Of a DNA stretch of 64,000 nt, positions 32,999-47,690 are shown one piece after another. The notes beneath the pieces were generated by a model, which was not told the origin of the DNA, made no database searches, and was given only the letters and a program-made list of their open reading frames with translations. The position numbers and the translations under genes are program-made. The DNA is from Leptonemataceae bacterium (GTDB lineage Bacteria; Spirochaetota; Leptospiria; Leptospirales; Leptonemataceae): the NCBI GenBank assembly GCA_965227295.1, contig OZ245742.1, positions 4,512,001 to 4,576,000 on the forward strand, in the 5' to 3' direction. Numbering within the stretch: the first letter of the stretch is position 1; each line of letters opens with the position of its first letter.

Positions 32999-33011
32999 AA
33001 TCAAGGTGTGT

Positions 33012-33746: not shown

Positions 33747-33767
33747 ATTTGTGGCCACAAAGGCGGA

Positions 33768-33954
33768 GCATTTGTCGAGGCGCGTGGTGCGGTCGGCGGG
33801 AGTTTACCATGGTAAAATCTTTGGCTGACCCGGGCGTGGATCTCGTACCGGTACGGGGCGTGGGGTTGTGGTGGCCTCGCGCTACGCGCGAGTCTTCGAA
33901 GGTAGGTCCGCGGAAATCAGCCTGCCGGCGAGCGCCGCGCGCCTCGACAAATGC
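33768..33954. repeat. 187-bp segment bounded by 17-bp inverted repeats (MITE-like), absent from right arm
   Basis: GCATTTGTCGAGGCGCG 33768-33784 / CGCGCCTCGACAAATGC 33938-33954. Confidence 0.55.
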
Positions 33955-34379
33955 GTGGGGCGTGTGGCCACAGAGAACGGACGCGATCAGCGGAGCGATC
34001 ACGGAAAGAACTCACGGAAAGAACTCACGGAAAGAGGGCAAACATCACATGAGATATTGTTAGAGATTAAAGCACCAGGTGCCGCTGAAATCGAGTCCAC
34101 CTGGCAAGAACCCAACTGGATTATATATACGTCAATCGCGGCGACCAAAGACGTCCACGCTAACATATCTCGGCCGAACTCTAACCCCCGCCGCCCAGGT
34201 CGTGTCGTTTTTCTGGACAATCAAGGGAGTTCGAATTTCACGGCCAGCGCCGAGATCCCGCCGCGCACATCGTCGGTAATGCATCTGTGTATTTTGTGTG
34301 CGACGTCACGAAACCGCCGTACATAAATAGCGCGTGCAGGCGAAAACCCACCGGGTCTTCGCCTGCACGCGCGCGAACG

Positions 34380-34712
34380 TCACCAGCTCCAGCCGATTTC
34401 CTTTAACTGCTCCTTTTCTTCGGCTACGTCTTCTAACAGGTGGTCGGCGATCCGTTGCCAGTCCACTTTTTCGATGGCCCCCTGGAGTAACTCGCGCAAC
34501 AGTTCGGGAAGTTCGAGCCTGTGCAGATACTCCCGGTGACGATCTCTCAAGTGCGTGGCGAGTTGTTCTTCCTCGCCGTCACGAACACAATCGCAGGCAA
34601 TGCCCATAAACAAATCGTTGGTCGCCGTGTCTTTGTACATGCGCTCAGACACACACCACGTTTCGTAGTTGCCCCAACCGCAATAGTATTCGTTACTCCT
34701 TCCAGCCGTCAT
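34380..34712 (-). CDS. Hypothetical mobile-element protein (GWxNYETW motif, DUF7249-like), copy A
   Basis: YCGWGNYETWCV..VDWQRIA; third gene of overlapping operon. Confidence 0.6.
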   Translation of the reverse strand: MTAGRSNEYYCGWGNYETWCVSERMYKDTATNDLFMGIACDCVRDGEEEQLATHLRDRHREYLHRLELPELLRELLQGAIEKVDWQRIADHLLEDVAEEKEQLKEIGWSW

Positions 34713-34896
34713 CGCAGAGGACCTTCTCCGGCTCTTTGCCGATCAATTCCCGGAGCGGCGGACGCTTACGCAGGTCCGCCGCAATGAGATTGCGAATGTG
34801 CTGTGCCGTGTTCGCGAAGCGCGTGCGCAATTCGTAGCGCATGTCTTCGCTGATGCCGACCAGATACTGAACTGATTTTCTTCCCGGGTCTTTCAT
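34693..34896 (-). CDS. Small protein, possible ribbon-helix-helix, copy A
   Basis: MKDPGRKSVQYLVGISEDMRYELR..; SD AGGAGG; ATGA overlap. Confidence 0.45.
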   Translation of the reverse strand: MKDPGRKSVQYLVGISEDMRYELRTRFANTAQHIRNLIAADLRKRPPLRELIGKEPEKVLCDDGWKE

Positions 34897-35366
34897 GCTT
34901 CGGCCTCCTGGTCCAGGTCGTCGAAGAGCGGGTAGAAACGAGTGCTTTTCGGCGCTCCCAGGTAACACGCGCGGCGGAGTTCCTGGTCCCACTCGCAAGC
35001 GACCTGTTGAAGTTCGAGAAACACTTCTCGATTTACTTTTAAGAGGGAATTCAGCCGGGACGGCTGCGGTACCTTCACCGGGGTGTAGACCTCTTTGAAT
35101 TCACCGGTAGTTTCACTGGCGAGCAGAAACGGAAACCACTCATTGTCCGCCGTGATTTCGAACTGCATTTCGCGAGCGCACAGCCAGCGGCCGTTTGCTT
35201 GCTTGATGAACTGCGAAACGCCCAGGGCGGGGCGAGCGGTTGGACCCTCTCCCAGAAACTCGATGACGAGCAGCGGGTATTCTTCGTGCTCCACGCGGAT
35301 GGACTCGCACTGCTTGAGCGCTTCCATGCCTTCGTGACTGACGATGATTTTCTGAATTGTTTCCAT
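34893..35366 (-). CDS. Hypothetical mobile-element protein (DUF6908-like), copy A
   Basis: SD GGAGG; LVIEFLGEGP..EMQFEI resembles DUF6908 from recollection. Confidence 0.55.
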   Translation of the reverse strand: METIQKIIVSHEGMEALKQCESIRVEHEEYPLLVIEFLGEGPTARPALGVSQFIKQANGRWLCAREMQFEITADNEWFPFLLASETTGEFKEVYTPVKVPQPSRLNSLLKVNREVFLELQQVACEWDQELRRACYLGAPKSTRFYPLFDDLDQEAEA

Positions 35367-35527
35367 GTGATAGATTCCTCCGGGGGAAGGCTAAACACAC
35401 GGCGGCATACTGCAAGTTTAAACTCAAGGAAAGTTAATTTTTTGCTGACAAAAGCCCGGAGACATGCTAACATCACGAAATGTTACTCTAGTAAATGTCG
35501 ATGCACGAGGTCGCCCGCTTCTCTCTT

Positions 35528-35600
35528 TCAGGGGTGCGGGATTCGAACCCACTTCCCGGGGGACACAGTCCCGGATGTTAGCCGCATACACCAACCCCTA
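35528..35600 (-). tRNA. trnH: tRNA-His(GUG), array 1
   Basis: Loop CT-GTG-TC; GTTCGAATCC; one anticodon-stem mismatch. Confidence 0.75.
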
Positions 35601-35605
35601 TTGAA

Positions 35606-35679
35606 AATCCCGGCGAGGACTCGAACCCCGATCGACGGGGATAGAAGCCCCGTGCTTTTTCCCGTTAAGCTACCGGGAT
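35606..35679 (-). tRNA. trnR: tRNA-Arg(UCU), array 1
   Basis: CGGGG-CTTCTAT-CCCCG anticodon arm. Confidence 0.85.
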
Positions 35680-35682
35680 ACT

Positions 35683-35755
35683 TCGAAGCGGCTGGAATCG
35701 AACCAACACCAACGGCATATCAGAGCGTCGTTCTCAACCGTTAAACTACGCTTCG
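35683..35755 (-). tRNA. trnI: tRNA-Ile(GAU), array 1
   Basis: Loop CT-GAT-AT; acceptor CGAAGCG/CGCTTCG. Confidence 0.8.
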
Positions 35756-35759
35756 TATG

Positions 35760-35830
35760 CACCACGTAGGGGAGTCGAACCCCTGCTACTCGATCGACAA
35801 TCGGGCGTTCTACCGTTAAACTAATGCGGC
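35760..35830 (-). tRNA. trnD: tRNA-Asp(GUC), array 1
   Basis: Loop TT-GTC-GA; G73. Confidence 0.8.
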
Positions 35831-35836
35831 AAACTG

Positions 35837-35910
35837 TAGGGCCCGCGGGACTCGAACCCGCAATCTCCAGATTCGTAATCTGATGCCTTGATCCATTTGG
35901 CCAGGGCCCT
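35837..35910 (-). tRNA. trnR: tRNA-Arg(ACG), array 1
   Basis: TCAGA-TTACGAA-TCTGG. Confidence 0.9.
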
Positions 35911-35913
35911 GTG

Positions 35914-35987
35914 TTGGACTTGCAGGACTCGAACCTGCGGCCTTCCGCCTCGGAAGCGGGTGCTCTTTCCCTCTGAGCTAAAGTCCA
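35914..35987 (-). tRNA. trnR: tRNA-Arg(CCG), array 1
   Basis: CCCGC-TTCCGAG-GCGGA. Confidence 0.85.
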
Positions 35988-35990
35988 GTG

Positions 35991-36061
35991 TGGAGCCGGT
36001 GGGAATCGAACCCACATCTGTTGCTTGCAAAACAAAGATTCTCCCGTTAAACTACGGCCCC
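35991..36061 (-). tRNA. trnA: tRNA-Ala(UGC), array 1
   Basis: Loop TT-TGC-AA; G3:U70 identity pair. Confidence 0.85.
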
Positions 36062-36064
36062 GTG

Positions 36065-36138
36065 TACGGGCTGCTGGATTCGAACCAGCGATCTCCTGTT
36101 TGTAAGACAGGCGTTCTGACCTGCTAAACTAAGCCCGT
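36065..36138 (-). tRNA. trnV: tRNA-Val(UAC), array 1
   Basis: CCTGT-CTTACAA-ACAGG. Confidence 0.9.
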
Positions 36139-36141
36139 GTG

Positions 36142-36213
36142 TTGCGGCGAAAGGAATTGAACCTCCGTAGGACGGGTTATGAGCCCGTTGCATCGCCACT
36201 ATGCTACACCGCA
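36142..36213 (-). tRNA. trnM: tRNA-Met(CAU), initiator-like, array 1
   Basis: ACGGG-CTCATAA-CCCGT with three consecutive G-C pairs; TTCAA T-loop. Confidence 0.85.
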
Positions 36214-36219
36214 ATGTTT

Positions 36220-36294
36220 TGCCCGGTGCATGGATTCGAACCTGCAACCAGCGGTTTACAAAACCGCCGCTCTAACCATTGGAGCTAACCGGGC
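36220..36294 (-). tRNA. trnT: tRNA-Thr(UGU), array 1
   Basis: GCGGT-TTTGTAA-ACCGC. Confidence 0.9.
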
Positions 36295-36297
36295 GTG

Positions 36298-36369
36298 TGC
36301 ATCAGCAGGGAATCGAACCCTGATGATCTGCTTGGAAGACAGACATGTTGGCCGTTACATCACTGATGC
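36298..36369 (-). tRNA. trnG: tRNA-Gly(UCC), array 1
   Basis: TCTGT-CTTCCAA-GCAGA. Confidence 0.85.
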
Positions 36370-36373
36370 GTAT

Positions 36374-36447
36374 TCGTCGGGTTCGGGATCGAACCGAATT
36401 CTCTCGCTTTTCAGGCGAGCGCTCATGACCACACCTGCTCCCCGACG
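36374..36447 (-). tRNA. trnF: tRNA-Phe(GAA), array 1
   Basis: CTCGC-CTGAAAA-GCGAG. Confidence 0.8.
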
Positions 36448-36504
36448 TTCGTCTTGTTCTTCTTAAAGTCACTTTCGCTCATATTTACTCCTTAGTGCGA
36501 AATG

Positions 36505-36576
36505 TGGGTCCGGTGGGATTCGAACCCACGGCCATCCGATTAAAAGTCGGATGCTCTACCCCCGAGCTCCGGACCC
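36505..36576 (-). tRNA. trnK: tRNA-Lys(UUU), array 1
   Basis: TCCGA-CTTTTAA-TCGGA. Confidence 0.9.
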
Positions 36577-36577
36577 G

Positions 36578-36616
36578 CTATTCTCTAAATGTCTTCTTGT
36601 CATCTTCGCTCTTCAT
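36578..36616 (-). CDS. Mini-ORF MKSEDDKKTFRE between tRNA-Gly and tRNA-Lys
   Basis: SD AGGAG; identical peptide in array 2 with synonymous ACA/ACG change. Confidence 0.4.
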   Translation of the reverse strand: MKSEDDKKTFRE

Positions 36617-36641
36617 GGCGTATCTCCTGTTGCTTATGATG

Positions 36642-36714
36642 TGCACCGCAAGAGACTCGAACTCTTCCCTGCTGCATGGCACACAGCTATGCTTGCCACT
36701 AACACCAGCGATGC
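36642..36714 (-). tRNA. trnG: tRNA-Gly(GCC), array 1
   Basis: GCTGT-GTGCCAT-GCAGC. Confidence 0.8.
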
Positions 36715-36723
36715 GTTTAAACG

Positions 36724-36757
36724 AAAAAACCCTCCAGGGAGTCGGCCGGGGAGGGTT
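36724..36757 (-). terminator. Attenuator terminator before 14-tRNA cluster, array 1
   Basis: AACCCTCC..GGAGGGTT stem plus U-tract. Confidence 0.8.
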
Positions 36758-36784
36758 CTTCATGAATGCGTTTGCAGATTCTTC

Positions 36785-36901
36785 TCAGCAACGCATGCGC
36801 AGAACTCCTCCGGCGATCCGGCCGTCCTTATGGCCCGCATCGATCCGCATCCCGATAAATCGGGCGGTTCTCACAACCGTTGCTGTTACTGTTAAGCTCA
36901 T
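36785..36901 (-). CDS. Leader peptide MSLTVTATVVRTARFIGMRIDAGHKDGRIAGGVLRMRC (array 1)
   Basis: 38 codons; residues 4-33 are exclusively amino acids of the downstream tRNAs; 3' part complementary to terminator 5' arm. Confidence 0.75.
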   Translation of the reverse strand: MSLTVTATVVRTARFIGMRIDAGHKDGRIAGGVLRMRC

Positions 36902-36951
36902 GATAGAATACTCAGACGAATCCCTTGTTAAATTTCTTATAAAAATATCTT

Positions 36952-37023
36952 TGCCGACGCAGGGAATCGAAACCTGATTACCGCAGTGAAAGTGCGAGGT
37001 CCTTGCCTTTAGACGACGCCGGC
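36952..37023 (-). tRNA. trnE: tRNA-Glu(UUC), array 1
   Basis: TCGCA-CTTTCAC-TGCGG; T-stem has one mismatch in this copy. Confidence 0.75.
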
Positions 37024-37119
37024 GATTTGAGTTGAAACGTAGTTAGGTCCACGTTCCCGTTCTCGCGGCATCGCTCCAGCTGACACGTATGTACGTCCTG
37101 CGCGGTTCATTATACTATG

Positions 37120-37190
37120 AGACATGGGTGGGATTCGAACCCACGTAAACGGCTTTGCAGACCGCCCGCTGGCCTCTCGCGCACCATGTC
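37120..37190 (-). tRNA. trnC: tRNA-Cys(GCA), array 1
   Basis: GCGGT-CTGCAAA-GCCGT; U73. Confidence 0.8.
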
Positions 37191-37285
37191 GGGTTTACTC
37201 TGGCTTGCGGCGGTCGGTAACATCGTTCTCTGTCTTCCATATCTCCCTCATAACACTTGAAAAATAAGCAAAATGCCCATAAACG

Positions 37286-37319
37286 AAAAAAGGCGAGCCG
37301 TTGATCCGGGCTCGCCTTT
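37286..37319 (-). terminator. Attenuator terminator before Cys/Glu tRNAs, array 1
   Basis: AAAGGCGAGCC..GGCTCGCCTTT plus U-tract. Confidence 0.8.
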
Positions 37320-37343
37320 CGCATCCAGCAGGTTACACTGAAT

Positions 37344-37451
37344 CTAAGACGAGCGCATGACTCCCTGAAACACATCACGCTCACAACCCGCATGAATCAT
37401 GCCGGCCTTCGCGAGGTCTCGTTCCGTTCTATGTTGGCGCTTCGGCGACAT
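37344..37451 (-). CDS. Leader peptide MSPKRQHRTERDLAKAGMIHAGCERDVFQGVMRSS (array 1)
   Basis: 35 codons downstream of a TTGACG -35 box; GCTCGTCTT at 3' end pairs with terminator 5' arm. Confidence 0.55.
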   Translation of the reverse strand: MSPKRQHRTERDLAKAGMIHAGCERDVFQGVMRSS

Positions 37452-37531
37452 TCCGTTTCCTGAATACTTACTTGGTATTCGACGTCAACAACTTCATAAA
37501 GATTTAAATATTTTTTTCATGGAACTCAATG

Positions 37532-37604
37532 TTCCGGGAGATGGATTCGAACCATCAACCCCCGACTTCAAAGGCCGGTGTTCTACCCGTTGAACTACCC
37601 CGGA
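37532..37604 (-). tRNA. trnQ: tRNA-Gln(UUG), array 1
   Basis: CCGGC-CTTTGAA-GTCGG; U1-A72. Confidence 0.85.
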
Positions 37605-37612
37605 ATGAGTTG

Positions 37613-37684
37613 CACCGGAGGCAGGACTCGAACCTGCATAGAACGCATTAACATTGCGTCGCCTTACCATTAGGCTACTCCGGT
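37613..37684 (-). tRNA. trnN: tRNA-Asn(GUU), array 1
   Basis: ACGCA-ATGTTAA-TGCGT; G73. Confidence 0.85.
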
Positions 37685-37688
37685 ATTC

Positions 37689-37766
37689 TGGCAGAGGGAA
37701 CAGGATTCGAACCTGTGAACATCGGATTTGGAGTCCGACAGCTTGGACCGCTCGACTCATCCCTCT
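37689..37766 (-). tRNA. trnW: tRNA-Trp(CCA), array 1
   Basis: TCGGA-CTCCAAA-TCCGA; encoded GCCA end. Confidence 0.85.
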
Positions 37767-37769
37767 ATG

Positions 37770-37842
37770 TCGGCGTGGTGGGACTTGAACCCACGACCCC
37801 CGGTTCCCGAAACCGGTGCTCTACACCCTGAGCTATACGCCG
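37770..37842 (-). tRNA. trnP: tRNA-Pro(CGG), array 1
   Basis: CCGGT-TTCGGGA-ACCGG; C1-G72, A73. Confidence 0.9.
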
Positions 37843-37848
37843 GATAAT

Positions 37849-37882
37849 AAAAAACCCCCTCAAGCTTCCGCCGGAGGGGGTT
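37849..37882 (-). terminator. Attenuator terminator before Pro/Trp/Asn/Gln tRNAs, array 1
   Basis: AACCCCCTC..GAGGGGGTT plus U-tract, ending 7 nt before tRNA-Pro. Confidence 0.85.
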
Positions 37883-37911
37883 CTCGCGCAAACGCGCTGT
37901 TGCTCAGAGCA

Positions 37912-37983
37912 CTACACGACCACCTCCAGGCAGATGCCGGGATTCTGTTGGGGCCAGTTGCTCTGTGGGAAAAACATGCTCAT
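37912..37983 (-). CDS. Leader peptide MSMFFPQSNWPQQNPGICLEVVV (array 1)
   Basis: P/Q/N/W make up 9 of 10 consecutive codons; in-frame 6-nt indel relative to array 2. Confidence 0.8.
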   Translation of the reverse strand: MSMFFPQSNWPQQNPGICLEVVV

Positions 37984-38087
37984 CACGTTTACCTGAAGTT
38001 AAGAGACGACGGTTTTCGAGAAATCCTTAACGAAAATATATTTTTTGGAACGAAAGCTTCGCTTTGCCTCGTCTCATCTACCGTATC

Positions 38088-38156
38088 ATGAACGGTATGT
38101 TACTATCATCGCTGTATCTTCTCAGCTCCGGCGGCATGCGGGAGGCGGCGATGTAG
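38088..38156 (+). CDS. Leader peptide MNGMLLSSLYLLSSGGMREAAM (array 1)
   Basis: Ten consecutive L/S/Y codons, each a different codon; precedes Tyr/Ser/Leu tRNAs. Confidence 0.82.
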   Translation: MNGMLLSSLYLLSSGGMREAAM

Positions 38157-38184
38157 TACGCGCAGACAGTTTTCTGTCTTCGAG

Positions 38185-38224
38185 AAGCCCCTCCCGGTGA
38201 ACCCGCGAGGGGCTTTTTGTTTTT
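38185..38224 (+). terminator. Attenuator terminator before Tyr/Ser/Leu tRNAs, array 1
   Basis: AAGCCCCTC..GAGGGGCTT plus TTTGTTTTT. Confidence 0.85.
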
Positions 38225-38228
38225 AAAC

Positions 38229-38315
38229 GCGCTGCTTTCCTCCTGCCGGTCTGTAAAGCCGGGGTCGTTAAACGAGGAGGTCGGGAGACGAGAGGTTCAA
38301 ATCCTCGGCAGCGCA
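38229..38315 (+). tRNA. trnY: Atypical tRNA-Tyr(GUA)-like gene lacking canonical D-arm, array 1
   Basis: Acceptor GCGCTGC/GCAGCGC, CCGGT-CTGTAAA-GCCGG, GTTCAAATCC; only 10 nt between acceptor and anticodon stems. Confidence 0.65.
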
Positions 38316-38319
38316 TACT

Positions 38320-38403
38320 GGATAGATGCCCGAGTGGTAAGGGACCCGTTTCGAAAACGGAGGTCGGCGGTTCGTCGCGTGGGTTCGATTCCTACTCTAT
38401 CCG
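38320..38403 (+). tRNA. trnS: tRNA-Ser(CGA), array 1
   Basis: Loop TT-CGA-AA; long variable arm; G73. Confidence 0.85.
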
Positions 38404-38409
38404 CATTAC

Positions 38410-38493
38410 GGAGGGATGACCGAGTGGTAAGGTATCCGGTTGGAAGCCGGTGGTCATCGATGAGATGCGAAGGTTCGATTCCTTCTCCCTCCG
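38410..38493 (+). tRNA. trnS: tRNA-Ser(GGA), array 1
   Basis: Loop TT-GGA-AG; long variable arm; G73. Confidence 0.85.
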
Positions 38494-38499
38494 AGAAAT

Positions 38500-38584
38500 G
38501 GAACAGTGGCCGAGAGGTAAGGCAGCGGTCCGCTAAACCGTGGTCGTCGTAACAGACGCGGAGGTTCGATTCCTCCCTGTTCCG
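38500..38584 (+). tRNA. trnS: tRNA-Ser(GCU), array 1
   Basis: GCGGT-CCGCTAA-ACCGT (C33); long variable arm. Confidence 0.85.
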
Positions 38585-38587
38585 CAG

Positions 38588-38662
38588 CGAGCGATAGCCC
38601 AATCAGGCAGAGGCAGTCGACTTAAAATCGGCAGAGTGCGGGTTCGATTCCCGCTCGCTCAA
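38588..38662 (+). tRNA. trnL: tRNA-Leu(UAA), short variable loop, array 1
   Basis: GTCGA-CTTAAAA-TCGGC. Confidence 0.85.
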
Positions 38663-38665
38663 AAC

Positions 38666-38738
38666 GCATCCGTAGCCCAACGGTAGAGGCACCAGGTCGA
38701 GAGCCTGGTCAGTGCAGGTTCGAATCCGGCCGGATGCA
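38666..38738 (+). tRNA. trnL: tRNA-Leu(GAG), short variable loop, array 1
   Basis: CCAGG-TCGAGAG-CCTGG (C33). Confidence 0.75.
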
Positions 38739-38741
38739 CAC

Positions 38742-38814
38742 GGGGACGTAGCCCAACGGCAGAGGCAGCACGCTCAGAACGTGTCCAGTGTGAGTTCGAA
38801 TCTCGCCGCCCCCA
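38742..38814 (+). tRNA. trnL: tRNA-Leu(CAG), short variable loop, array 1
   Basis: GCACG-CTCAGAA-CGTGT. Confidence 0.85.
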
Positions 38815-38985
38815 TAGAGTCTCCACTGAAGAGATTTGCGACCTCGTGCATCGACATTTACTAGAGTAACATTTCGTGATGTTAGCATGTCTCCGGGCTT
38901 TTGTCAGCAAAAAATTAACTTTCCTTGAGTTTAAACTTGCAGTATGCCGCCGTGTGTTTAGCCTTCCCCCGGAGGAATCTATCAC

Positions 38986-39459
38986 ATGGAAACAATTCAG
39001 AAAATCATCGTCAGTCACGAAGGCATGGAAGCGCTCAAGCAGTGCGAGTCCATCCGCGTGGAGCACGAAGAATACCCGCTGCTCGTCATCGAGTTTCTGG
39101 GAGAGGGTCCAACCGCTCGCCCCGCCCTGGGCGTTTCGCAGTTCATCAAGCAAGCAAACGGCCGCTGGCTGTGCGCTCGCGAAATGCAGTTCGAAATCAC
39201 GGCGGACAATGAGTGGTTTCCGTTTCTGCTCGCCAGTGAAACTACCGGTGAATTCAAAGAGGTCTACACCCCGGTGAAGGTACCGCAGCCGTCCCGGCTG
39301 AATTCCCTCTTAAAAGTAAATCGAGAAGTGTTTCTCGAACTTCAACAGGTCGCTTGCGAGTGGGACCAGGAACTCCGCCGCGCGTGTTACCTGGGAGCGC
39401 CGAAAAGCACTCGTTTCTACCCGCTCTTCGACGACCTGGACCAGGAGGCCGAAGCATGA
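38986..39459 (+). CDS. Hypothetical mobile-element protein (DUF6908-like), copy B
   Basis: Identical to 34893-35366. Confidence 0.55.
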   Translation: METIQKIIVSHEGMEALKQCESIRVEHEEYPLLVIEFLGEGPTARPALGVSQFIKQANGRWLCAREMQFEITADNEWFPFLLASETTGEFKEVYTPVKVPQPSRLNSLLKVNREVFLELQQVACEWDQELRRACYLGAPKSTRFYPLFDDLDQEAEA

Positions 39460-39659
39460 AAGACCCGGGAAGAAAATCAGTTCAGTATCTGGTCGGCATC
39501 AGCGAAGACATGCGCTACGAATTGCGCACGCGCTTCGCGAACACGGCACAGCACATTCGCAATCTCATTGCGGCGGACCTGCGTAAGCGTCCGCCGCTCC
39601 GGGAATTGATCGGCAAAGAGCCGGAGAAGGTCCTCTGCGATGACGGCTGGAAGGAGTAA
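39456..39659 (+). CDS. Small protein, possible ribbon-helix-helix, copy B
   Basis: Identical to 34693-34896. Confidence 0.45.
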   Translation: MKDPGRKSVQYLVGISEDMRYELRTRFANTAQHIRNLIAADLRKRPPLRELIGKEPEKVLCDDGWKE

Positions 39660-39972
39660 CGAATACTATTGCGGTTGGGGCAACTACGAAACGTGGTGTG
39701 TGTCTGAGCGCATGTACAAAGACACGGCGACCAACGATTTGTTTATGGGCATTGCCTGCGATTGTGTTCGTGACGGCGAGGAAGAACAACTCGCCACGCA
39801 CTTGAGAGATCGTCACCGGGAGTATCTGCACAGGCTCGAACTTCCCGAACTGTTGCGCGAGTTACTCCAGGGGGCCATCGAAAAAGTGGACTGGCAACGG
39901 ATCGCCGACCACCTGTTAGAAGACGTAGCCGAAGAAAAGGAGCAGTTAAAGGAAATCGGCTGGAGCTGGTGA
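39640..39972 (+). CDS. Hypothetical protein (DUF7249-like), copy B
   Basis: Identical to 34380-34712. Confidence 0.6.
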   Translation: MTAGRSNEYYCGWGNYETWCVSERMYKDTATNDLFMGIACDCVRDGEEEQLATHLRDRHREYLHRLELPELLRELLQGAIEKVDWQRIADHLLEDVAEEKEQLKEIGWSW

Positions 39973-39982
39973 CGTTCGCGCG

Positions 39983-40028
39983 CGTGCAGGCGAAGACCCG
40001 GTGGGTTTTCGCCTGCACGCGCTATTTA
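39983..40028 (+). terminator. Long hairpin after 3-gene operon (mirror copy near 34325-34370)
   Basis: GCGTGCAGGCGAAGACCC..GGGTTTTCGCCTGCACGC followed by TATTTAT. Confidence 0.6.
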
Positions 40029-40316
40029 TGTACGGCGGTTTCGTGACGTCGCACACAAAATACACAGATGCATTACCGACGATGTGCGCGGCGGGATCTC
40101 GGCGCTGGCCGTGAAATTCGAACTCCCTTGATTGTCCAGAAAAACGACACGACCTGGGCGGCGGGGGTTAGAGTTCGGCCGAGATATGTTAGCGTGGACG
40201 TCTTTGGTCGCCGCGATTGACGTATATATAATCCAGTTGGGTTCTTGCCAGGTGGACTCGATTTCAGCGGCACCTGGTGCTTTAATCTCTAACAATATCT
40301 CATGTGATGTTTGCCC

Positions 40317-41328
40317 TCTTTCCGTGAGTTCTTTCCGTGAGTTCTTTCCGTGAGTTCTTTCCGTGAGTTCTTTCCGTGAGTTCTTTCCGTGAGTTCTTTC
40401 CGTGAGTTCTTTCCGTGAGTTCTTTCCGTGAGTTCTTTCCGTGAGTTCTTTCCGTGAGTTCTTTCCGTGAGTTCTTTCCGTGAGTTCTTTCCGTGAGTTC
40501 TTTCCGTGAGTTCTTTCCGTGAGTTCTTTCCGTGAGTTCTTTCCGTGAGTTCTTTCCGTGAGTTCTTTCCGTGAGTTCTTTCCGTGAGTTCTTTCCGTGA
40601 GTTCTTTCCGTGAGTTCTTTCCGTGAGTTCTTTCCGTGAGTTCTTTCCGTGAGTTCTTTCCGTGAGTTCTTTCCGTGAGTTCTTTCCGTGAGTTCTTTCC
40701 GTGAGTTCTTTCCGTGAGTTCTTTCCGTGAGTTCTTTCCGTGAGTTCTTTCCGTGAGTTCTTTCCGTGAGTTCTTTCCGTGAGTTCTTTCCGTGAGTTCT
40801 TTCCGTGAGTTCTTTCCGTGAGTTCTTTCCGTGAGTTCTTTCCGTGAGTTCTTTCCGTGAGTTCTTTCCGTGAGTTCTTTCCGTGAGTTCTTTCCGTGAG
40901 TTCTTTCCGTGAGTTCTTTCCGTGAGTTCTTTCCGTGAGTTCTTTCCGTGAGTTCTTTCCGTGAGTTCTTTCCGTGAGTTCTTTCCGTGAGTTCTTTCCG
41001 TGAGTTCTTTCCGTGAGTTCTTTCCGTGAGTTCTTTCCGTGAGTTCTTTCCGTGAGTTCTTTCCGTGAGTTCTTTCCGTGAGTTCTTTCCGTGAGTTCTT
41101 TCCGTGAGTTCTTTCCGTGAGTTCTTTCCGTGAGTTCTTTCCGTGAGTTCTTTCCGTGAGTTCTTTCCGTGAGTTCTTTCCGTGAGTTCTTTCCGTGAGT
41201 TCTTTCCGTGAGTTCTTTCCGTGAGTTCTTTCCGTGAGTTCTTTCCGTGAGTTCTTTCCGTGAGTTCTTTCCGTGAGTTCTTTCCGTGAGTTCTTTCCGT
41301 GAGTTCTTTCCGTGAGTTCTTTCCGTGA
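40317..41328. repeat. Perfect 13-bp tandem repeat (TCTTTCCGTGAGT), about 78 copies
   Basis: Directly visible; 1012 nt / 13; no spacers. Confidence 0.97.
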
Positions 41329-41356
41329 TCGCTCCGCTGATCGCGTCCGTTCTCTG

Positions 41357-43340: not shown

Positions 43341-43505
43341 TGGCCACACGCCCCACGCATTTGTGGCCACAAATTCAGCCGTGGGCAGCAAGTTTCTTGC
43401 CGGCCATCCAGAACCGAAACATCAGCCGGATATGCGCGGCGATCTCCGCTTCCACGGACAGCTTTTTCGATCTGCGTTTCGCTGGCTCCGCAGAAAAATT
43501 GATCC

Positions 43506-43661: not shown

Positions 43662-43681
43662 AAATTCCTGAAGATGGACGC

Positions 43682-43799: not shown

Positions 43800-43822
43800 A
43801 AATCTCTTCAATGGAGACTATA

Positions 43823-43958: not shown

Positions 43959-44033
43959 TCGAGCGAGCGGGAATCGAACCCGCACTCTGCCGATTTTAAG
44001 TCGACTGCCTCTGCCTGATTGGGCTATCGCTCG
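43959..44033 (-). tRNA. trnL: tRNA-Leu(UAA), array 2
   Basis: Near-identical to 38588-38662. Confidence 0.85.
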
Positions 44034-44036
44034 CTG

Positions 44037-44121
44037 CGGAACAGGGAGGAATCGAACCTCCGCGTCTGTTACGACGACCACGGTTTAGCGGACCGCTGCC
44101 TTACCTCTCGGCCACTGTTCC
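44037..44121 (-). tRNA. trnS: tRNA-Ser(GCU), array 2
   Basis: Matches 38500-38584. Confidence 0.85.
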
Positions 44122-44127
44122 AATTTC

Positions 44128-44212
44128 CGGAGGGAGAAGGAATCGAACCTTCGCGCCTGTTAAGACGACCGCCGGCTTCCAACCGGATACCTTACCACTC
44201 GGTCATCCCTCC
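44128..44212 (-). tRNA. trnS: tRNA-Ser(GGA), array 2
   Basis: Matches 38410-38493 with different variable arm. Confidence 0.85.
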
Positions 44213-44218
44213 ACGCTG

Positions 44219-44302
44219 CGGATAGAGTAGGAATCGAACCCACGCGACGAACCGCCGACCTCCGTTTTCGAAACGGGTCCCTTACCACTCGGGCATCTAT
44301 CC
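44219..44302 (-). tRNA. trnS: tRNA-Ser(CGA), array 2
   Basis: Matches 38320-38403. Confidence 0.85.
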
Positions 44303-44306
44303 AGTA

Positions 44307-44443
44307 TGCGCTGCCGAGGATTTGAACCTCTCGTCACCCGACCTCCTCGTTTAACGAGTAAACTGTACCTTGCTGCGCAAGCCTTGACTTACTACCGCCT
44401 TTCAGTTGCTGGCGTTTACAGACCGGCAGGAGGAAAGCAGCGC
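44307..44443 (-). pseudogene. trnY: Atypical tRNA-Tyr(GUA) interrupted by ~55-nt insertion, array 2
   Basis: Matches 38229-38315 except extra sequence ~44358-44413 at 3' side of anticodon stem. Confidence 0.7.
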
Positions 44444-44447
44444 GTTT

Positions 44448-44487
44448 AAAAAGAAAAAGCCCCTCGCGGGTTTACCGGGAGGGGCTT
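44448..44487 (-). terminator. Attenuator terminator (Tyr/Ser/Leu cluster), array 2
   Basis: Same stem as 38185-38224; changes fall outside the closing GC stem. Confidence 0.85.
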
Positions 44488-44515
44488 CTCGAAGACAGAG
44501 AACTGTCCGCGCGTA

Positions 44516-44584
44516 CTACATCGCCGCCTCCCGCATGCCGCCGGAGCTGAGAAGATACAGCGATGATAGTAACATACCGTTCAT
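44516..44584 (-). CDS. Leader peptide MNGMLLSSLYLLSSGGMREAAM (array 2)
   Basis: Identical to 38088-38156. Confidence 0.82.
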   Translation of the reverse strand: MNGMLLSSLYLLSSGGMREAAM

Positions 44585-44688
44585 GATACGGTACATGAGA
44601 CGAGGCAAAGCGAAGCTTTCGTTCCAAAAAATATATTTTCGTTAAGAATTTCTCGAAAACCGTCGTCTCTTAACTTCAGGTAAACGTG

Positions 44689-44754
44689 ATGCACTTCCCA
44701 CAGAGCAACTGGCCCCAACAGAATCCCGGCATCTGCCTGGAGGTGGTCGTGTAG
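44689..44754 (+). CDS. Leader peptide MHFPQSNWPQQNPGICLEVVV (array 2)
   Basis: AGGT SD-like sequence upstream; P/Q/N/W run conserved. Confidence 0.8.
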   Translation: MHFPQSNWPQQNPGICLEVVV

Positions 44755-44783
44755 TGCTCTGAGCAACAGCGCGTTTGCGCGAG

Positions 44784-44817
44784 AACCCCCTCCGGCGGAA
44801 GCTTGAGGGGGTTTTTT
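44784..44817 (+). terminator. Attenuator terminator (Pro/Trp/Asn/Gln cluster), array 2
   Basis: AACCCCCTC..GAGGGGGTTTTTT. Confidence 0.85.
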
Positions 44818-44823
44818 ATTATC

Positions 44824-44896
44824 CGGCGTGTAGCTCAGGGTGTAGAGCACCGGTATCGGGAACCGGGGGTCGTGGGTTCAAGTCCCACCACGCCGA
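44824..44896 (+). tRNA. trnP: tRNA-Pro(CGG), array 2
   Basis: CCGGT-ATCGGGA-ACCGG. Confidence 0.85.
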
Positions 44897-44899
44897 CAT

Positions 44900-45076
44900 A
44901 GAGGGATGAGTCGAGCGGTCCAGGCTGTCGGACTCCAAATCCGATGTTCACAGGTTTTTGTGCATGGATGCACTTATGCCGCGGAGGACAGGAAGTCCGG
45001 GAGCGGCCGAATCCTGAAAGAGGAAGATGCTACGCATCTTTCATCTTACTGACGCGCTGCGCTTGTCCCTCTGCCA
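44900..45076 (+). pseudogene. trnW: tRNA-Trp(CCA) with two insertions (44957-45007 in T-loop; 45017-45065 in T-stem 3' side), array 2
   Basis: Alignment to intact copy 37689-37766. Confidence 0.85.
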
Positions 45077-45080
45077 GAAT

Positions 45081-45152
45081 ACCGGAGTAGCCTAATGGTA
45101 AGGCGACGCACTGTTAATGCGTTCTATGCAGGTTCGAGTCCTGCCTCCGGTG
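45081..45152 (+). tRNA. trnN: tRNA-Asn(GUU), array 2
   Basis: ACGCA-CTGTTAA-TGCGT. Confidence 0.9.
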
Positions 45153-45160
45153 CAACTCAT

Positions 45161-45294
45161 TCCGGGGTAGTTCAACGGGTAGAACACCGGCCTTTGAAGT
45201 CGGGGGCGCAAATAGACTTTTGCCTTATGGCAAAAGTCGGCGGTTCGGAGTTGTGCGGCAACGCACAACTCCGGGTCCTCACCATCTCCCGGAG
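45161..45294 (+). pseudogene. trnQ: tRNA-Gln(UUG) with T-arm 5' half replaced by 75-nt double-hairpin insert (45207-45281), array 2
   Basis: Alignment to 37532-37604. Confidence 0.8.
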
Positions 45295-45374
45295 CATTGA
45301 GTTCTATGAAAAAAATATTTAAATCTTTATGAAGTTGTTGACGTCGAATACCGAGTAAGTAATCAGGAAACGGA

Positions 45375-45482
45375 ATGTCGCAGAAGCGCCTACAGACAAC
45401 GGAACGAGACCTCGCGAAGGCCGGCATGATTCATGCGGGTTGTGAGCGTGATGTGTTTCAGGGAGTCATGCGCTCGTCTTAG
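45375..45482 (+). CDS. Leader peptide MSQKRLQTTERDLAKAGMIHAGCERDVFQGVMRSS (array 2)
   Basis: Same length as array 1 copy; residues 9-35 identical. Confidence 0.55.
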   Translation: MSQKRLQTTERDLAKAGMIHAGCERDVFQGVMRSS

Positions 45483-45506
45483 ATTCAGTGTAACCTGCTG
45501 GATGCG

Positions 45507-45540
45507 AAAGGCGAGCCCGGATCAACGGCTCGCCTTTTTT
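45507..45540 (+). terminator. Attenuator terminator (Cys/Glu cluster), array 2
   Basis: AAAGGCGAGCC..GGCTCGCCTTTTTT. Confidence 0.8.
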
Positions 45541-45635
45541 CGTTTATGGGCATTTTGCTTATTTTTCAAGTGTTATGAGGGAGATATGGAAGACAGAGAA
45601 CGATGTTACCGACCGCCGCAAGCCAGAGTAAACCC

Positions 45636-45758
45636 GACATGGTGCGCGAGAGGCCAGCGGGCGGTCTGCAAAGCCGTTTAACGTGGGTTTGTGTGCAGGG
45701 ATGCACTTATGCCGCGAAGGACAGGATGTCCGGGAGCGGCCGAATCCCACCCATGTCT
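45636..45758 (+). pseudogene. trnC: tRNA-Cys(GCA) with 51-nt T-loop insertion (45690-45740), array 2
   Basis: GGTT[insert]CGAATCC versus 37120-37190. Confidence 0.85.
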
Positions 45759-45854
45759 CATAGTACAATGAACCGCGCAGGACGTACATATGTATCAGCC
45801 GGAGCGATGCCGCGAGAGCGGGAACGTGGATCAAGCTACGTTTCAACTCAAATC

Positions 45855-45926
45855 GCCGGCGTCGTCTAACGGCAAGGACGCTGCACTTTCACTGCGGTAA
45901 TCGGGGTTCGATTCCCCGCGTCGGCA
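45855..45926 (+). tRNA. trnE: tRNA-Glu(UUC), array 2
   Basis: Loop CT-TTC-AC; intact T-arm CGGGG-TTCGATT-CCCCG. Confidence 0.85.
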
Positions 45927-45976
45927 AAGGTATTTTCATAAGAAATTTAACAATGGATTCGTCTGAGTATTCTATC

Positions 45977-46093
45977 ATGAGCTTAACAGTAACAGCAACG
46001 GTTGTAAGGACCGCCCGATTTATCGGGATGCGGATCGATGCGGGCCATAAGGACGGCCGGATCGCCGGAGGAGTTCTGCGCATGCGTTGCTGA
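45977..46093 (+). CDS. Leader peptide MSLTVTATVVRTARFIGMRIDAGHKDGRIAGGVLRMRC (array 2)
   Basis: Same peptide as array 1; differences seen (GTG/GTA, AGA/AGG) are synonymous. Confidence 0.78.
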   Translation: MSLTVTATVVRTARFIGMRIDAGHKDGRIAGGVLRMRC

Positions 46094-46120
46094 GAAGAAT
46101 CTACAGACGCATTCATGAAG

Positions 46121-46154
46121 AACCCTCCCCGGCCGACGCCCTGGAGGGTTTTTT
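46121..46154 (+). terminator. Attenuator terminator (large cluster), array 2
   Basis: AACCCTCC..GGAGGGTTTTTT. Confidence 0.8.
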
Positions 46155-46163
46155 CGTTTATAC

Positions 46164-46236
46164 GCATCGCTGGTGTCAGTGGCAAGCATAGCTGTGTGCC
46201 ATGCAGCAGGGAAGAGTTCGAGTCTCTTGCGGTGCA
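46164..46236 (+). tRNA. trnG: tRNA-Gly(GCC), array 2
   Basis: Matches 36642-36714. Confidence 0.8.
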
Positions 46237-46301
46237 CATTACAGAAAACAGGAGGTACGCCATGAAGAGCGAAGATGACAAGAAGACGTTTAGAGAATAG
46301 C

Positions 46302-46419
46302 GGGTCCGGAGCTCGGGGGTAGAGCATCCGACTTTTAATCGGATGGCGATCGGTTGAGTGCTTCGCACTCTCATCTTACTCCCGCCTTTCAGTTGGGGGT
46401 TCGAATCCCACCGGACCCA
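46302..46419 (+). pseudogene. trnK: tRNA-Lys(UUU) with ~46-nt insertion at variable loop/T-stem (~46348-46394), array 2
   Basis: Alignment to 36505-36576. Confidence 0.8.
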
Positions 46420-46477
46420 CATTTCAAGTAGCGAGGTTAATATGAACGAAAGTGACTTTAAGAATAATAAGACGGAA

Positions 46478-46550
46478 CGTCGGGGAGCAGGTGTGGTCAT
46501 TGCATCCGGTTGAAGCCCGGAGGAATTCGGTTCGATCCCGAGCCCGACGA
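46478..46550 (+). tRNA. trnF: tRNA-Phe(GAA), array 2
   Basis: TCCGG-TTGAAGC-CCGGA. Confidence 0.8.
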
Positions 46551-46554
46551 ATAC

Positions 46555-46677
46555 GCATCAGTGATGTAACGGTCAACATGTCTGTCTTCCAAACAGATCA
46601 TCAGGGTTTTTGGCCATGGATGGCCTTATGCCGCGGAGGACAGGAGGTCCGAGAGCGGCCGATTCCCTGCTGATGCA
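46555..46677 (+). pseudogene. trnG: tRNA-Gly(UCC) with 51-nt T-loop insertion (46609-46659), array 2
   Basis: GGTT[insert]CGATTCC versus 36298-36369. Confidence 0.85.
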
Positions 46678-46680
46678 CAC

Positions 46681-46755
46681 GCCCGGTTAGCTCCAATGGT
46701 TAGAGCGGCGGTTTTGTGAACCGCTGGTTGCAGGTTCGAATCCGTGCACCGGGCA
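46681..46755 (+). tRNA. trnT: tRNA-Thr(UGU), array 2
   Basis: GCGGT-TTTGTGA-ACCGC. Confidence 0.85.
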
Positions 46756-46761
46756 AAACAT

Positions 46762-46833
46762 TGCGGTGTAGCATAGTGGCGATGCAGCGGGCTCATAACC
46801 CGTCCTACGGAGGTTCAATTCCTTCCGCCGCAA
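46762..46833 (+). tRNA. trnM: tRNA-Met(CAU), initiator-like, array 2
   Basis: GCGGG-CTCATAA-CCCGT. Confidence 0.85.
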
Positions 46834-46836
46834 CAT

Positions 46837-46959
46837 ACGGGCTTAGGACGCAATATAAACGCCTGTCTTACAAACAGGAGATCGCTGGTTTTTGTGCATG
46901 GATGCACTTATGCCGCGGAGGCCAGGAGGGCCGAGAGCGGCCGAATCCGGCAGCCCGTA
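46837..46959 (+). pseudogene. trnV: tRNA-Val(UAC) with 51-nt T-loop insertion (46891-46941) and altered D-arm, array 2
   Basis: Alignment to 36065-36138. Confidence 0.85.
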
Positions 46960-46962
46960 CAT

Positions 46963-47033
46963 GGGGCCGTAGTTTAACGGGAGAATCTTTGTTTTGCAAA
47001 CAAGGGACGTCGGTTCGATTCCGACCGGTTCCA
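46963..47033 (+). tRNA. trnA: tRNA-Ala(UGC), array 2
   Basis: Loop TT-TGC-AA; G3:U70. Confidence 0.85.
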
Positions 47034-47038
47034 CAAAT

Positions 47039-47163
47039 TGGACTTTAGCTCAGAGGGACAGAGCGCCCGTTTCCGAAGCGGTAGGCCGCAGGTTTTTGGC
47101 CACGGATGGCCTTATGCCGCGAAGGACAGGAGGTCCGAGAGCGGCCGAGTCCTGCAAGTCCAA
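47039..47163 (+). pseudogene. trnR: tRNA-Arg(CCG) with 51-nt T-loop insertion (47095-47145), array 2
   Basis: GGTT[insert]CGAGTCC versus 35914-35987. Confidence 0.85.
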
Positions 47164-47166
47164 CAC

Positions 47167-47240
47167 AGGGCCCTGGCCAAATGGATCAAGGCATCAGATT
47201 ACGAATCTGAAGATTGCGGGTTCGAGTCCCGCGGGCTCTA
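47167..47240 (+). tRNA. trnR: tRNA-Arg(ACG), array 2
   Basis: TCAGA-TTACGAA-TCTGA. Confidence 0.9.
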
Positions 47241-47243
47241 CAT

Positions 47244-47314
47244 GCCGCGTTAGTTTAATGGTAGAACTCCTGATTGTCTCTCAGGGGGCGAGGGTTCGAT
47301 TCCCTCACGTGGTG
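47244..47314 (+). tRNA. trnD: tRNA-Asp(GUC), array 2
   Basis: CCTGA-TTGTCTC-TCAGG. Confidence 0.85.
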
Positions 47315-47318
47315 CATA

Positions 47319-47430
47319 CGAAGCGTAGTTTAACGGTTGAGAACGACGGTCTGATATGCCGTTGGTTAAAGACGAAGATTCAGCGTTATGCGTGAACGCA
47401 TAACGCTGGGTTCGATTCCAGCCGCTTCGA
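47319..47430 (+). pseudogene. trnI: tRNA-Ile(GAU) with ~39-nt hairpin insertion at variable loop/T-stem, array 2
   Basis: Extra TAAAGACGAAGATTCAGCGTTATGCGTGAACGCATAAC versus 35683-35755. Confidence 0.8.
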
Positions 47431-47433
47431 AGC

Positions 47434-47451
47434 ATCCCGGTAATCGGGATT
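47434..47451 (+). pseudogene. Collapsed tRNA-Arg(UCU): only acceptor-stem ends remain, array 2
   Basis: ATCCCGGTA-ATCGGGATT in the syntenic position of 35606-35679. Confidence 0.7.
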
Positions 47452-47456
47452 TTCAT

Positions 47457-47529
47457 AAGGGGTTGGTGTATGTGGCTAACATCCGGGATTGTGTCTCCCG
47501 GGCAGTGGGTTCGAATCCCGCACCCCTGA
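47457..47529 (+). tRNA. trnH: tRNA-His(GUG), array 2
   Basis: CGGGA-TTGTGTC-TCCCG. Confidence 0.8.
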
Positions 47530-47690
47530 AAGAGAGAAGCGGGCGATCTCATGCATCGATATTTACTAGAGTAACATTGCATGATGTTAGCATGTCGCCA
47601 GGTTTTTGTCAGCAAAAAATTAACTTTCCTTGAGTTTAAACTTGTAATATGCCGCCATGTATTTAGCCTTCCCCCGGAGGAAACTATCAC

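Follow-up and report, generated by a model that had tools for sequence, protein, structure and literature searches.

Leader-peptide attenuators predicted before the four operons of a spare transfer RNA array in a Leptonemataceae bacterium

The subject of this study is an array of transfer RNA (tRNA) genes at positions 35528-38814 of a stretch of 64,000 nucleotides (nt) from a Leptonemataceae bacterium (the window, G000:C1:4512001-4576000), whose genome (G000) is a single contig of 5.94 Mb. ARAGORN reports 26 tRNA genes in this interval, 20 on the minus strand (Pro, Trp, Asn and Gln; Cys and Glu; and a 14-gene operon from Gly to His) and six on the plus strand (Ser x3 and Leu x3), and this map bears out the original prediction, made from the letters alone, that the genes fall into four groups (Y/S/L, P/W/N/Q, C/E and a group for 11 amino acids). 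The four groups share one architecture—a promoter-like site, an open reading frame (ORF) of 22-38 codons, an intrinsic terminator and then the tRNAs—and their parts are given below (tRNAs from ARAGORN, terminators as a hairpin with a U tract, CGTC motifs from a motif scan, and leaders from the sequence and, for leader 3, also from alignment).

38070..38073, plus strand: CGTC promoter-like motif, 18 nt before leader 1
38088..38156, plus strand: leader ORF 1, 22 codons, includes LLSSLYLLSS with ten different codons
38185..38224, plus strand: intrinsic terminator of unit 1, -20.8 kcal/mol
about 38229..38315, plus strand: atypical Tyr(GUA) tRNA-like RNA, first in operon 1
38320..38814, plus strand: tRNA operon 1 after the Tyr-like RNA: Ser(CGA), Ser(GGA), Ser(GCU), Leu(UAA), Leu(GAG), Leu(CAG)
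38005..38011, minus strand: CGTCGTC promoter-like motif before leader 2
37912..37986, minus strand: leader ORF 2, start GTG 37986 or ATG 37983, includes PQSNWPQQNP
37847..37884, minus strand: intrinsic terminator of unit 2, -22.6 kcal/mol
37531..37842, minus strand: tRNA operon 2: Pro(CGG), Trp, Asn, Gln
37483..37488, minus strand: TTGACG, sigma-70-like -35 hexamer before leader 3 (TTGAC kept in the relatives G420 and G419)
37344..37451, minus strand: leader ORF 3, 35 codons, with TGT GAG CG (Cys-Glu-Arg)
37286..37318, minus strand: intrinsic terminator of unit 3, -17.6 kcal/mol
36952..37190, minus strand: tRNA operon 3: Cys, Glu
36915..36918, minus strand: CGTC promoter-like motif, 17 nt before leader 4
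36785..36901, minus strand: leader ORF 4, 38 codons
36724..36757, minus strand: intrinsic terminator of unit 4, -13.0 kcal/mol
35528..36714, minus strand: tRNA operon 4, 14 genes in all: Gly(GCC), Lys, Phe, Gly(UCC), Thr, Met, Val, Ala, Arg(CCG), Arg(ACG), Asp, Ile, Arg(UCU), His

The array is a supernumerary tRNA set, since a full host set is present elsewhere in the genome, 25 of the 26 array anticodons are duplicated among the host tRNAs, and array tRNAs share an aligned identity of 50-68% with their host counterparts; the anticodon loops differ in 17 of 25 such pairs. The original count of 27 tRNA genes for all 20 amino acids stands for the 26 genes that ARAGORN finds, while the 27th (Tyr) is a non-canonical tRNA-like RNA. 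The phrase “all 20 amino acids” depends on this atypical Tyr, because neither ARAGORN nor Rfam reports it.

Leaders and terminators were located by rules blind to codon content: the terminator as the best hairpin with a U tract, no more than 200 nt away from the first tRNA, and the leader as any ATG ORF of at least 15 codons that ends 10-60 nt before the stem. These rules returned, before each of the four groups, the predicted short ORF followed by an intrinsic terminator (4/4), namely a single U-tract hairpin of -13.0 to -22.6 kcal/mol together with one qualifying ORF and no other (22, 23, 35 and 38 codons), which ends 26-28 nt ahead of the stem; as a control, none of the 35 housekeeping tRNA blocks of G000 has a terminator within 200 nt. 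A generic promoter/terminator scan reported none of the four terminators, and neither a T-box nor any other Rfam cis-element matched at gathering threshold in window positions 33000-49000 or in seven homologous loci. The terminator-to-first-tRNA gap is only 9-14 nt in units 1, 2 and 4, so that a separate promoter downstream of the terminator has no room there, and the arms and U tract of the unit 4 terminator are invariant across all five aligned copies.

Three of the leaders are rich in codons for the tRNAs that follow: 10/21 codons are matched in the Y/S/L leader (binomial p 0.0027; nucleotide-shuffle p 0.0034) and 9/22 in the P/W/N/Q leader (binomial p 0.00087; nucleotide-shuffle p 0.0024), and 33 of the 37 codons after the start of leader 4 come from the 11 amino acids of its operon (binomial p 0.00018; shuffle p 0.0002). 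The claim that every leader carries a run of codons for its downstream tRNAs holds for these three and fails for the C/E leader, which is taken up below. The true pairing of leaders with operons ranks 1 of 24 in G000, and 26 of the 27 array RNAs have a readable codon in their own leader, the sole exception being tRNA-Pro(CGG). We also considered whether each leader uses each codon once; this idea holds in G000 leaders 1 and 4 (p 0.003 and 0.03) and fails in six other leaders, and it was rejected.

Relatives of the array are patchily distributed. A query with the C/E region matched three of 190 genomes of the class and one with the divergent region matched five of 42 genomes of the family (among the latter G412, which has an ordinary Ser pair and not an array), and G401 came from the divergent-region query together with a further search. 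G420 and G419 belong to the same genus, are 69-79% identical to the window and retain the four units; the P/W/N/Q unit is inverted in both relative to the window, so that rearrangement moves whole units. Their leaders retain frame, stop position and composition, and the true pairing in G420 again ranks 1 of 24. Conservation of the leader ORFs had been proposed as a check: between G420 and G419 the ratio of non-synonymous to synonymous change (pN/pS) is 0.51 (13.5 synonymous and 22.5 non-synonymous changes, p 0.027, for this one species pair), and indels between species keep the frame. G401 is of another genus, and here the tRNAs are regrouped on separate contigs and the leaders recoded to match the new groups, so that the second proposed check, co-variation of leader codons with tRNA content, came out in favor of the original prediction.

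G401 Tyr-like/Asn/Gln unit: leader ...VYQNNQYQN...
G401 Gly/Thr/Val/Arg/Lys/Arg/His unit: leader ...GKHTRTMRTRKHTGGVRRVHG..., 23/34 matched, p 7.8e-5
G401 Phe/Gly/Ala/Lys unit: leader ...AGFAGAAFSKGQGKGF..., 24/41 matched, p 1e-5
G401 Pro/Pro unit: leader ...FPHPFPQRPIRPAPEAPCP, 8/31 matched, p 6.9e-5, shuffle 0.057
G401 Leu/Cys block: leader ...LNLSLLNAAGLCC..., 10/31 matched, p 0.0011, terminator not found

The true pairing in G401 ranks 1 of 24 (1 of 120 with Leu/Cys), and by the binomial test control codons are enriched in 3/4 units of G000 and in 4/4 terminator units of G401. A further 20 tRNA places in G401 were examined among the 150 listed of 273 matches, and other units may be missed. 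The Leu/Cys-rich ORF lies 140 nt upstream of the Leu/Cys block, where termination is possibly of a different mode.

Across the four genomes, each of the 16 terminator-bearing units yields a single qualifying ATG ORF, whose end lies 20-36 nt ahead of the stem, and no amino acid of the downstream tRNAs is missing from the unit's leader. The Y/S/L, P/W/N/Q and Y/N/Q cassettes, aligned as seven sequences, share an invariant GGAGG-GG antiterminator, stop position and CCCC...GAGGGG-TTTTT terminator around a sensing stretch that is recoded among them; they are one paralogous cassette. Within leader 4, ATA is found only in G420 and G419 (2/4 operons), those with tRNA-Ile(UAU), and CGG lies inside the sensing stretch in G000 and G401, both with Arg(CCG), and is absent (G420) or confined to the tail (G419) where Arg(CCG) was lost; GGC/GGT tracks Gly(GCC) less cleanly. 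The tRNA-Ile(UAU), which is rare in bacteria, stands within the G420 and G419 arrays (L160 6714-6791; L161 10315-10392) and alone in G424 and G433 (L181; L192). These two arrays also share, between tRNA-Gly(UCC) and tRNA-Thr, an RNA that is conserved, about 270-310 nt long and tRNA-like at its ends (L160 7490-7750; L161 9245-9555), for which an Rfam search gave no significant family.

Wider searches returned little else. A whole-array query against 401 genomes of the phylum (two candidates scored per genome, with same-genus genomes outside the sample) gave only single-tRNA matches outside G000, the array query was covered in 0/37 matching plasmid and 0/121 matching phage records, and triple-tRNA patterns had no match in viral contigs. 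Four genome-contig and three metagenome-contig matches were not homologous arrays and had no leader unit, and a terminator pattern run over the 190 class genomes was too strict, missing G000 itself. Four public runs, which come from three studies, have contigs covering the array, and one of these runs, X1, may be the source sample; no RNA run is among the seven runs listed, which tells nothing about expression.

The predicted folding is that of a switch. In all four units (4/4, as the original prediction had it) the tail of the ORF pairs with the 5' arm of its own terminator, at -13.0 to -21.7 kcal/mol. With a ribosome mask applied and the terminator 3' arm held unpaired, the 5' arm is predicted to stay in a duplex with the leader as long as the A site has not come within about the last 8-11 codons and to be freed once it has (16/16 units), and a mutually exclusive antiterminator, whose 5' strand would lie under a ribosome at the leader end, is likewise predicted in 16/16. 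The matched block of codons ends at or near this release boundary in the Y/S/L, P/W/N/Q, Y/N/Q, G/T/V/R/K/H and F/G/A/K units, and the energy gap favoring the terminator shrinks strongly where the matched block ends. At equilibrium units 2 and 4 favor the antiterminator over part of the leader, and the ratio of duplex to stem is 0.69-1.04 in the 16 units vs a median of 0.51 in 46 control terminators. In a leader-peptide attenuator a protector (1:2) hairpin gives termination when the leader goes untranslated; folded free of ribosomes, the terminator dominates in units 1-3 (0.96-1.0) and not in unit 4 (0.01; 0.35 in array 2, described below). Unit 4 includes a tRNA-Met(CAU) with three G-C pairs in the anticodon stem, which we take to be an initiator sign; on this one fold prediction, read-through of unit 4 without a ribosome would suit a shortage of initiator tRNA.

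Taken together, it seems very probable from the sequence that each operon is gated by a leader-peptide (ribosome-mediated) transcription attenuator, the reading put forward in the original prediction, and the recoding in G401, with invariant switch parts around the recoded sensing stretch, argues for it. A ribosome of normal speed would cover the leader tail, the terminator would form and the tRNAs would stay “off.” Slow decoding of any tested codon would stall the ribosome upstream of the tail, and the free tail would capture the terminator 5' arm, letting RNA polymerase read into the tRNA group that serves those codons—in effect, a negative feedback loop on tRNA supply.

A number of observations weigh against this reading. 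For Y/S/L and C/E, equilibrium folding favors the completed terminator at almost every position, and therefore the switch in units 1 and 3 must be one of kinetic capture, on which classical attenuators rely. The tail-arm duplexes are moderately unusual only (shuffle p 0.001-0.25): each unit's duplex/stem value is reached by 3 to 13 of the 46 control terminators, 13 of which attain the lowest ratio among the units, and mismatched tails pair equally well across related terminators. The C/E leader is not enriched (3/34 codons; binomial p 0.44, shuffle 0.48), and G420 and G419 retain its Cys codon though their unit has no tRNA-Cys; what points to a putative sensor in this unit is the conservation of one Cys-Glu pair, TGT GAG CG being invariant and followed by ten codons and the stop in three of three species. 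Leader 2 has no CCG for tRNA-Pro(CGG), its Pro codons being CCA and CCC, and in G401 the F/G/A/K leader has no AAG for Lys(CUU) and the L/C leader no TTG for Leu(CAA). The L/C and I/R/K/M blocks of G401 (L202 2560-2817; L207 2494-2700) are without an intrinsic terminator, and the Ile/Arg/Lys/Met block is also without a qualifying ORF. Leaders 1 and 4 have no Shine-Dalgarno (SD) sequence and would be near-leaderless. Finally, G000, G419 and G420 are kin.

The alternative that survives best, improbable as we judge it, is that the leaders are translated attenuators sensing a general slowdown of the ribosome (from antibiotics or translation stress), the codon match being incidental or secondary. 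By the folding, any stall upstream of the tail would antiterminate, and leader 4 tests 11 amino acids while the C/E leader is nearly devoid of matched codons; moreover, the tRNA array of Anabaena is reported to be induced by ribosome-targeting antibiotics (PMC8421152). A general slowdown, however, gives no reason for splitting the array into units, nor for recoding the leaders when the tRNAs are regrouped. Quite improbable, and more so than the slowdown, is that the terminators silence a foreign array, or that a protein- or tRNA-binding (T-box type) antiterminator bypasses them, with the ORFs as by-products: the terminators do dominate at equilibrium in 2/4 units, acquired arrays are reportedly kept nearly silent (PMC8421152), and array 2 and the G419 array are decaying, but frame, stop position and matched codons of the ORFs show both conservation and co-variation, and the search of window positions 33000-49000 and the seven homologous loci gave no T-box or other Rfam cis-element. 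An artefact of chance and composition, or of assembly in a repeat-rich island, is scarcely credible and already largely refuted by independent genomes, for although array 1 is flanked by perfect 1516-nt inverted arms, another copy of it is found 5 kb off and GC-rich DNA has many short ORFs (116 of at least 20 codons in 6.5 kb), the composition-preserving shuffles give p 0.0002-0.0034 for three leaders, and homologues occur in three other genomes as well as in the contigs of the public runs.

Attenuation by a leader peptide is itself well established, as in pheM-pheST. Such attenuators are known for trp, his, leu, thr, ilvGMEDA, ilvBN as well as pheA (PMC1183508), and others are predicted for cysS (uORFC-8-2) and hisS leaders (PMC8632094, PMC2965389). 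The array units resemble the trp/his/thr/ilv attenuators in having a short control-codon ORF, a tail complementary to the terminator 5' arm and a terminator before the regulated genes. Unlike the known cases, their products are tRNAs and not enzymes or synthetases, their leaders test up to 11 amino acids and as a set of four cover the code, and many of their control codons are single instead of standing in runs of one codon. T-box riboswitches, too, are terminator/antiterminator switches that report tRNA status, but the T-box binds tRNA directly, whereas sensing here would use a ribosome on an ORF. The trn L-array of Anabaena PCC 7120 is likewise supernumerary, patchy and redundant, with a proposed role in translational stress (PMC8421152, PMC10272220); it is, however, one operon under the DNA-binding repressor TrcR (PMC10272220), in contrast to the four units with predicted RNA-level, codon-specific gates described here. 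PMC8421152 deals with L-arrays, their induction by translational stress and promoter repeats, and does not contain the words “attenuat-,” “leader” or “terminator.” Full-text literature searches, which covered few subscription papers and no supplements, returned no description of leader-peptide control of tRNA genes. The mechanism, then, would be known attenuation; the tRNA target, the multivalence and the closed loop are where it differs.

As to the main trigger, loss or inactivation of host tRNAs (by anticodon nucleases, tRNA-modifying toxins or phage infection) is most likely, ahead of amino-acid starvation, which would be the less logical signal because extra tRNA supplies no amino acid. 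Destruction or inactivation of tRNA suggests itself because a lost tRNA would mean a long stall at one codon, because the anticodon loops of array and host differ, and because Lamassu-type genes lie on the same island. Sparse control codons are described as having a low sensitivity to partial limitation (PMC1183508).

Similar leaders occur before tRNA genes in unrelated phage arrays. We examined 87 loci chosen for tRNA adjacency only (80 viral, 7 others; the 38 short loci L111-L148 were left out), in which 25 of 341 tRNA blocks have a terminator and 316 are without the feature; 21 of the 25 terminator-led blocks have a short ORF and at least two tRNAs. Matched to their own blocks, the 19 distinct leaders outscore 10000/10000 permutations (p 1e-4), a result that overstates independence because several of them come from related phages and are related to one another, a further point against the reading. 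Phage loci with a terminator and a codon-matched short ORF are L031, L035, L046, L060, L070, L075, L076, L083, L084, L088, L097, L106 and L109, with two tRNA blocks and two matching leaders in L060.

The promoters may add another input. The distance from the CGTC motif to the leader is 17-28 nt for leaders 1, 2 and 4, and in G401 it is 46-52 nt for 5/5 leaders; TCGTC is present in 9/17 upstream regions vs 0.8 in shuffles. We take the motif to resemble the -10 elements of extracytoplasmic function (ECF) sigma factors, and its being common to the units weakly suggests an additional stress-sigma input. The TTGACG before leader 3 was absent from the output of a consensus promoter scan.

Within the operons, mini-ORFs directly precede tRNA-Lys, -Phe, -Cys and -Glu and hold the cognate codon, a feature that the original prediction did not mention.

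36423..36482, minus strand: Phe mini-ORF MSESDF..., SD-led, before and into tRNA-Phe; Phe codon 6, 17 nt ahead
36578..36616, minus strand: Lys mini-ORF MKSEDDKKTFRE, SD-led, before tRNA-Lys; stop ends 1 nt ahead
37009..37110, minus strand: Glu mini-ORF MNR...AGAMPRERE..., before and into tRNA-Glu
37115..37240, minus strand: Cys mini-ORF MEDRERC... (Cys codon 7), before and through tRNA-Cys

The Phe mini-ORF reads MSESDF or MNESDF in 4/4 copies, its Phe codon lying 17-18 nt before the tRNA and its sequence and frame diverging past that codon, and the Lys mini-ORF reads MKSEDDK or VKNESDK in 4/4 copies (VKNESDK... in G420 and G419), with the stop 1-4 nt before the tRNA. The Glu mini-ORF starts 4 nt past the Cys mini-ORF stop in G000, the two being apparently coupled; its homologues in G420 and G419 are SD-led, and the SD rule finds none in the G000 copy. 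The Cys mini-ORF is present in G000 only, with a GAGG-type SD that is visible by eye, though the SD rule does not report it. Contig joints of run X7 (single contigs, depth 7-12) removed a mini-ORF and its tRNA together (36486 to 36639; 37110 to 37281) or moved the Lys mini-ORF/tRNA pair together (35599 to 36501; 36629 to 37280). G401 has similar spacers with SD-like purines and, by eye, no clear start, and ribosome binding or RNA stabilisation at these spacers without codon sensing is possible. Pairing of the mini-ORFs against their tRNAs was considered and rejected, being strong in 2/10 SD-led cognate copies (Phe, in array 1 and G420), partial in two and absent in six.

Our best guess, if a rather doubtful one, is that the mini-ORFs gate precursor folding or the access of RNase P. 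With a ribosome stalled 13-37 nt upstream, at the cognate codon, the tRNA would stay free, and an unhindered ribosome would run into the tRNA or terminate on it. That two tiers are both at work, leader attenuators gating groups and mini-ORFs gating the folding or RNase P maturation of single tRNAs, is a similarly tentative proposal.

The Tyr-like RNA has an 8-bp acceptor and a 4-bp T stem in 4/4 copies (the others at L160 9876-9964 and at L200 1299-1385 and 1609-1702) and lacks a canonical D arm; its anticodon hairpin lies inside an extra helix, which shows compensatory changes, and a GG-loop hairpin stands ahead of the T arm. The leaders that precede it include Tyr codons. Allo-tRNAs and other 8/4 tRNAs share with it the 8-bp acceptor, the 4-bp T stem and an occurrence in tRNA clusters, but allo-tRNAs keep a D arm and a long V arm (PMC5389517); “Tyr” is absent from the main text of that paper.

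A second array lies 5 kb from the first.

43959..47530: array 2, from comparison a second, inverted copy; leaders intact, many tRNAs interrupted in the T loop

The original prediction took this array as diverged and its layout as conserved across that divergence, which did not hold: the arms are 87-99% complementary, the leaders nearly identical, and in many of its tRNAs an insertion of roughly 55 nt disrupts the T loop, so that array 2 is near-identical and damaged by insertion, not meaningfully diverged. It is weak evidence that shows little beyond frames surviving a few changes (a 6-nt deletion in leader 2). The roughly 55-nt element follows GGTT and precedes CGAATCC in the T loop of several array 2 tRNAs (44955-47149) and is found at four other sites in the genome, and the G419 array (L161 6340-10120) has different palindromic inserts at its T loops. 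In run X2 only the array-2 form is listed, at high depth.

The surroundings give the array a mobile look. The perfect 1516-nt inverted arms (33999-35514 and 38838-40353), which carry a DUF6908 gene, directly adjoin the terminal tRNAs of array 1 at their 3' ends; copies of the DUF6908 region lie elsewhere in the genome, and array 2 has related arms on its flanks, as do the arrays of G420 and G419. Lamassu-type genes for LmuA (E 2e-19), a weak LmuC (E 0.002) and LmuB (E 3e-53) lie at 29324-32998 between 623-nt inverted repeats. At 27313-29252, pieces of a serine recombinase overlap a tRNA-Ser(CGA) (27409-27495) that is likely the integration site of the island. On the other side (40161-43304) are a 13-nt tandem repeat (about 40300-41350) and then a group II intron with a reverse transcriptase; the intron has near-identical copies at three further places in the genome.

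Bacteria, mobile elements and phages commonly carry spare tRNA arrays, for which the reason of their retention and the timing of their expression are for the most part open questions; one case, that of Anabaena and TrcR, has been worked out in the literature (PMC8421152, PMC10272220). In the array described here, the leader codons would state which shortage switches on which tRNAs, making the hypothesis that such arrays restore the tRNA pool following an attack on tRNAs directly testable, tRNA by tRNA. Should both tiers prove to work, the array would be a self-diagnosing repair kit against tRNA-destroying toxins, its non-canonical Tyr tRNA included. The leader cassette itself, duplicated and recoded in the course of evolution, would be a natural and reprogrammable sensor of tRNA availability.

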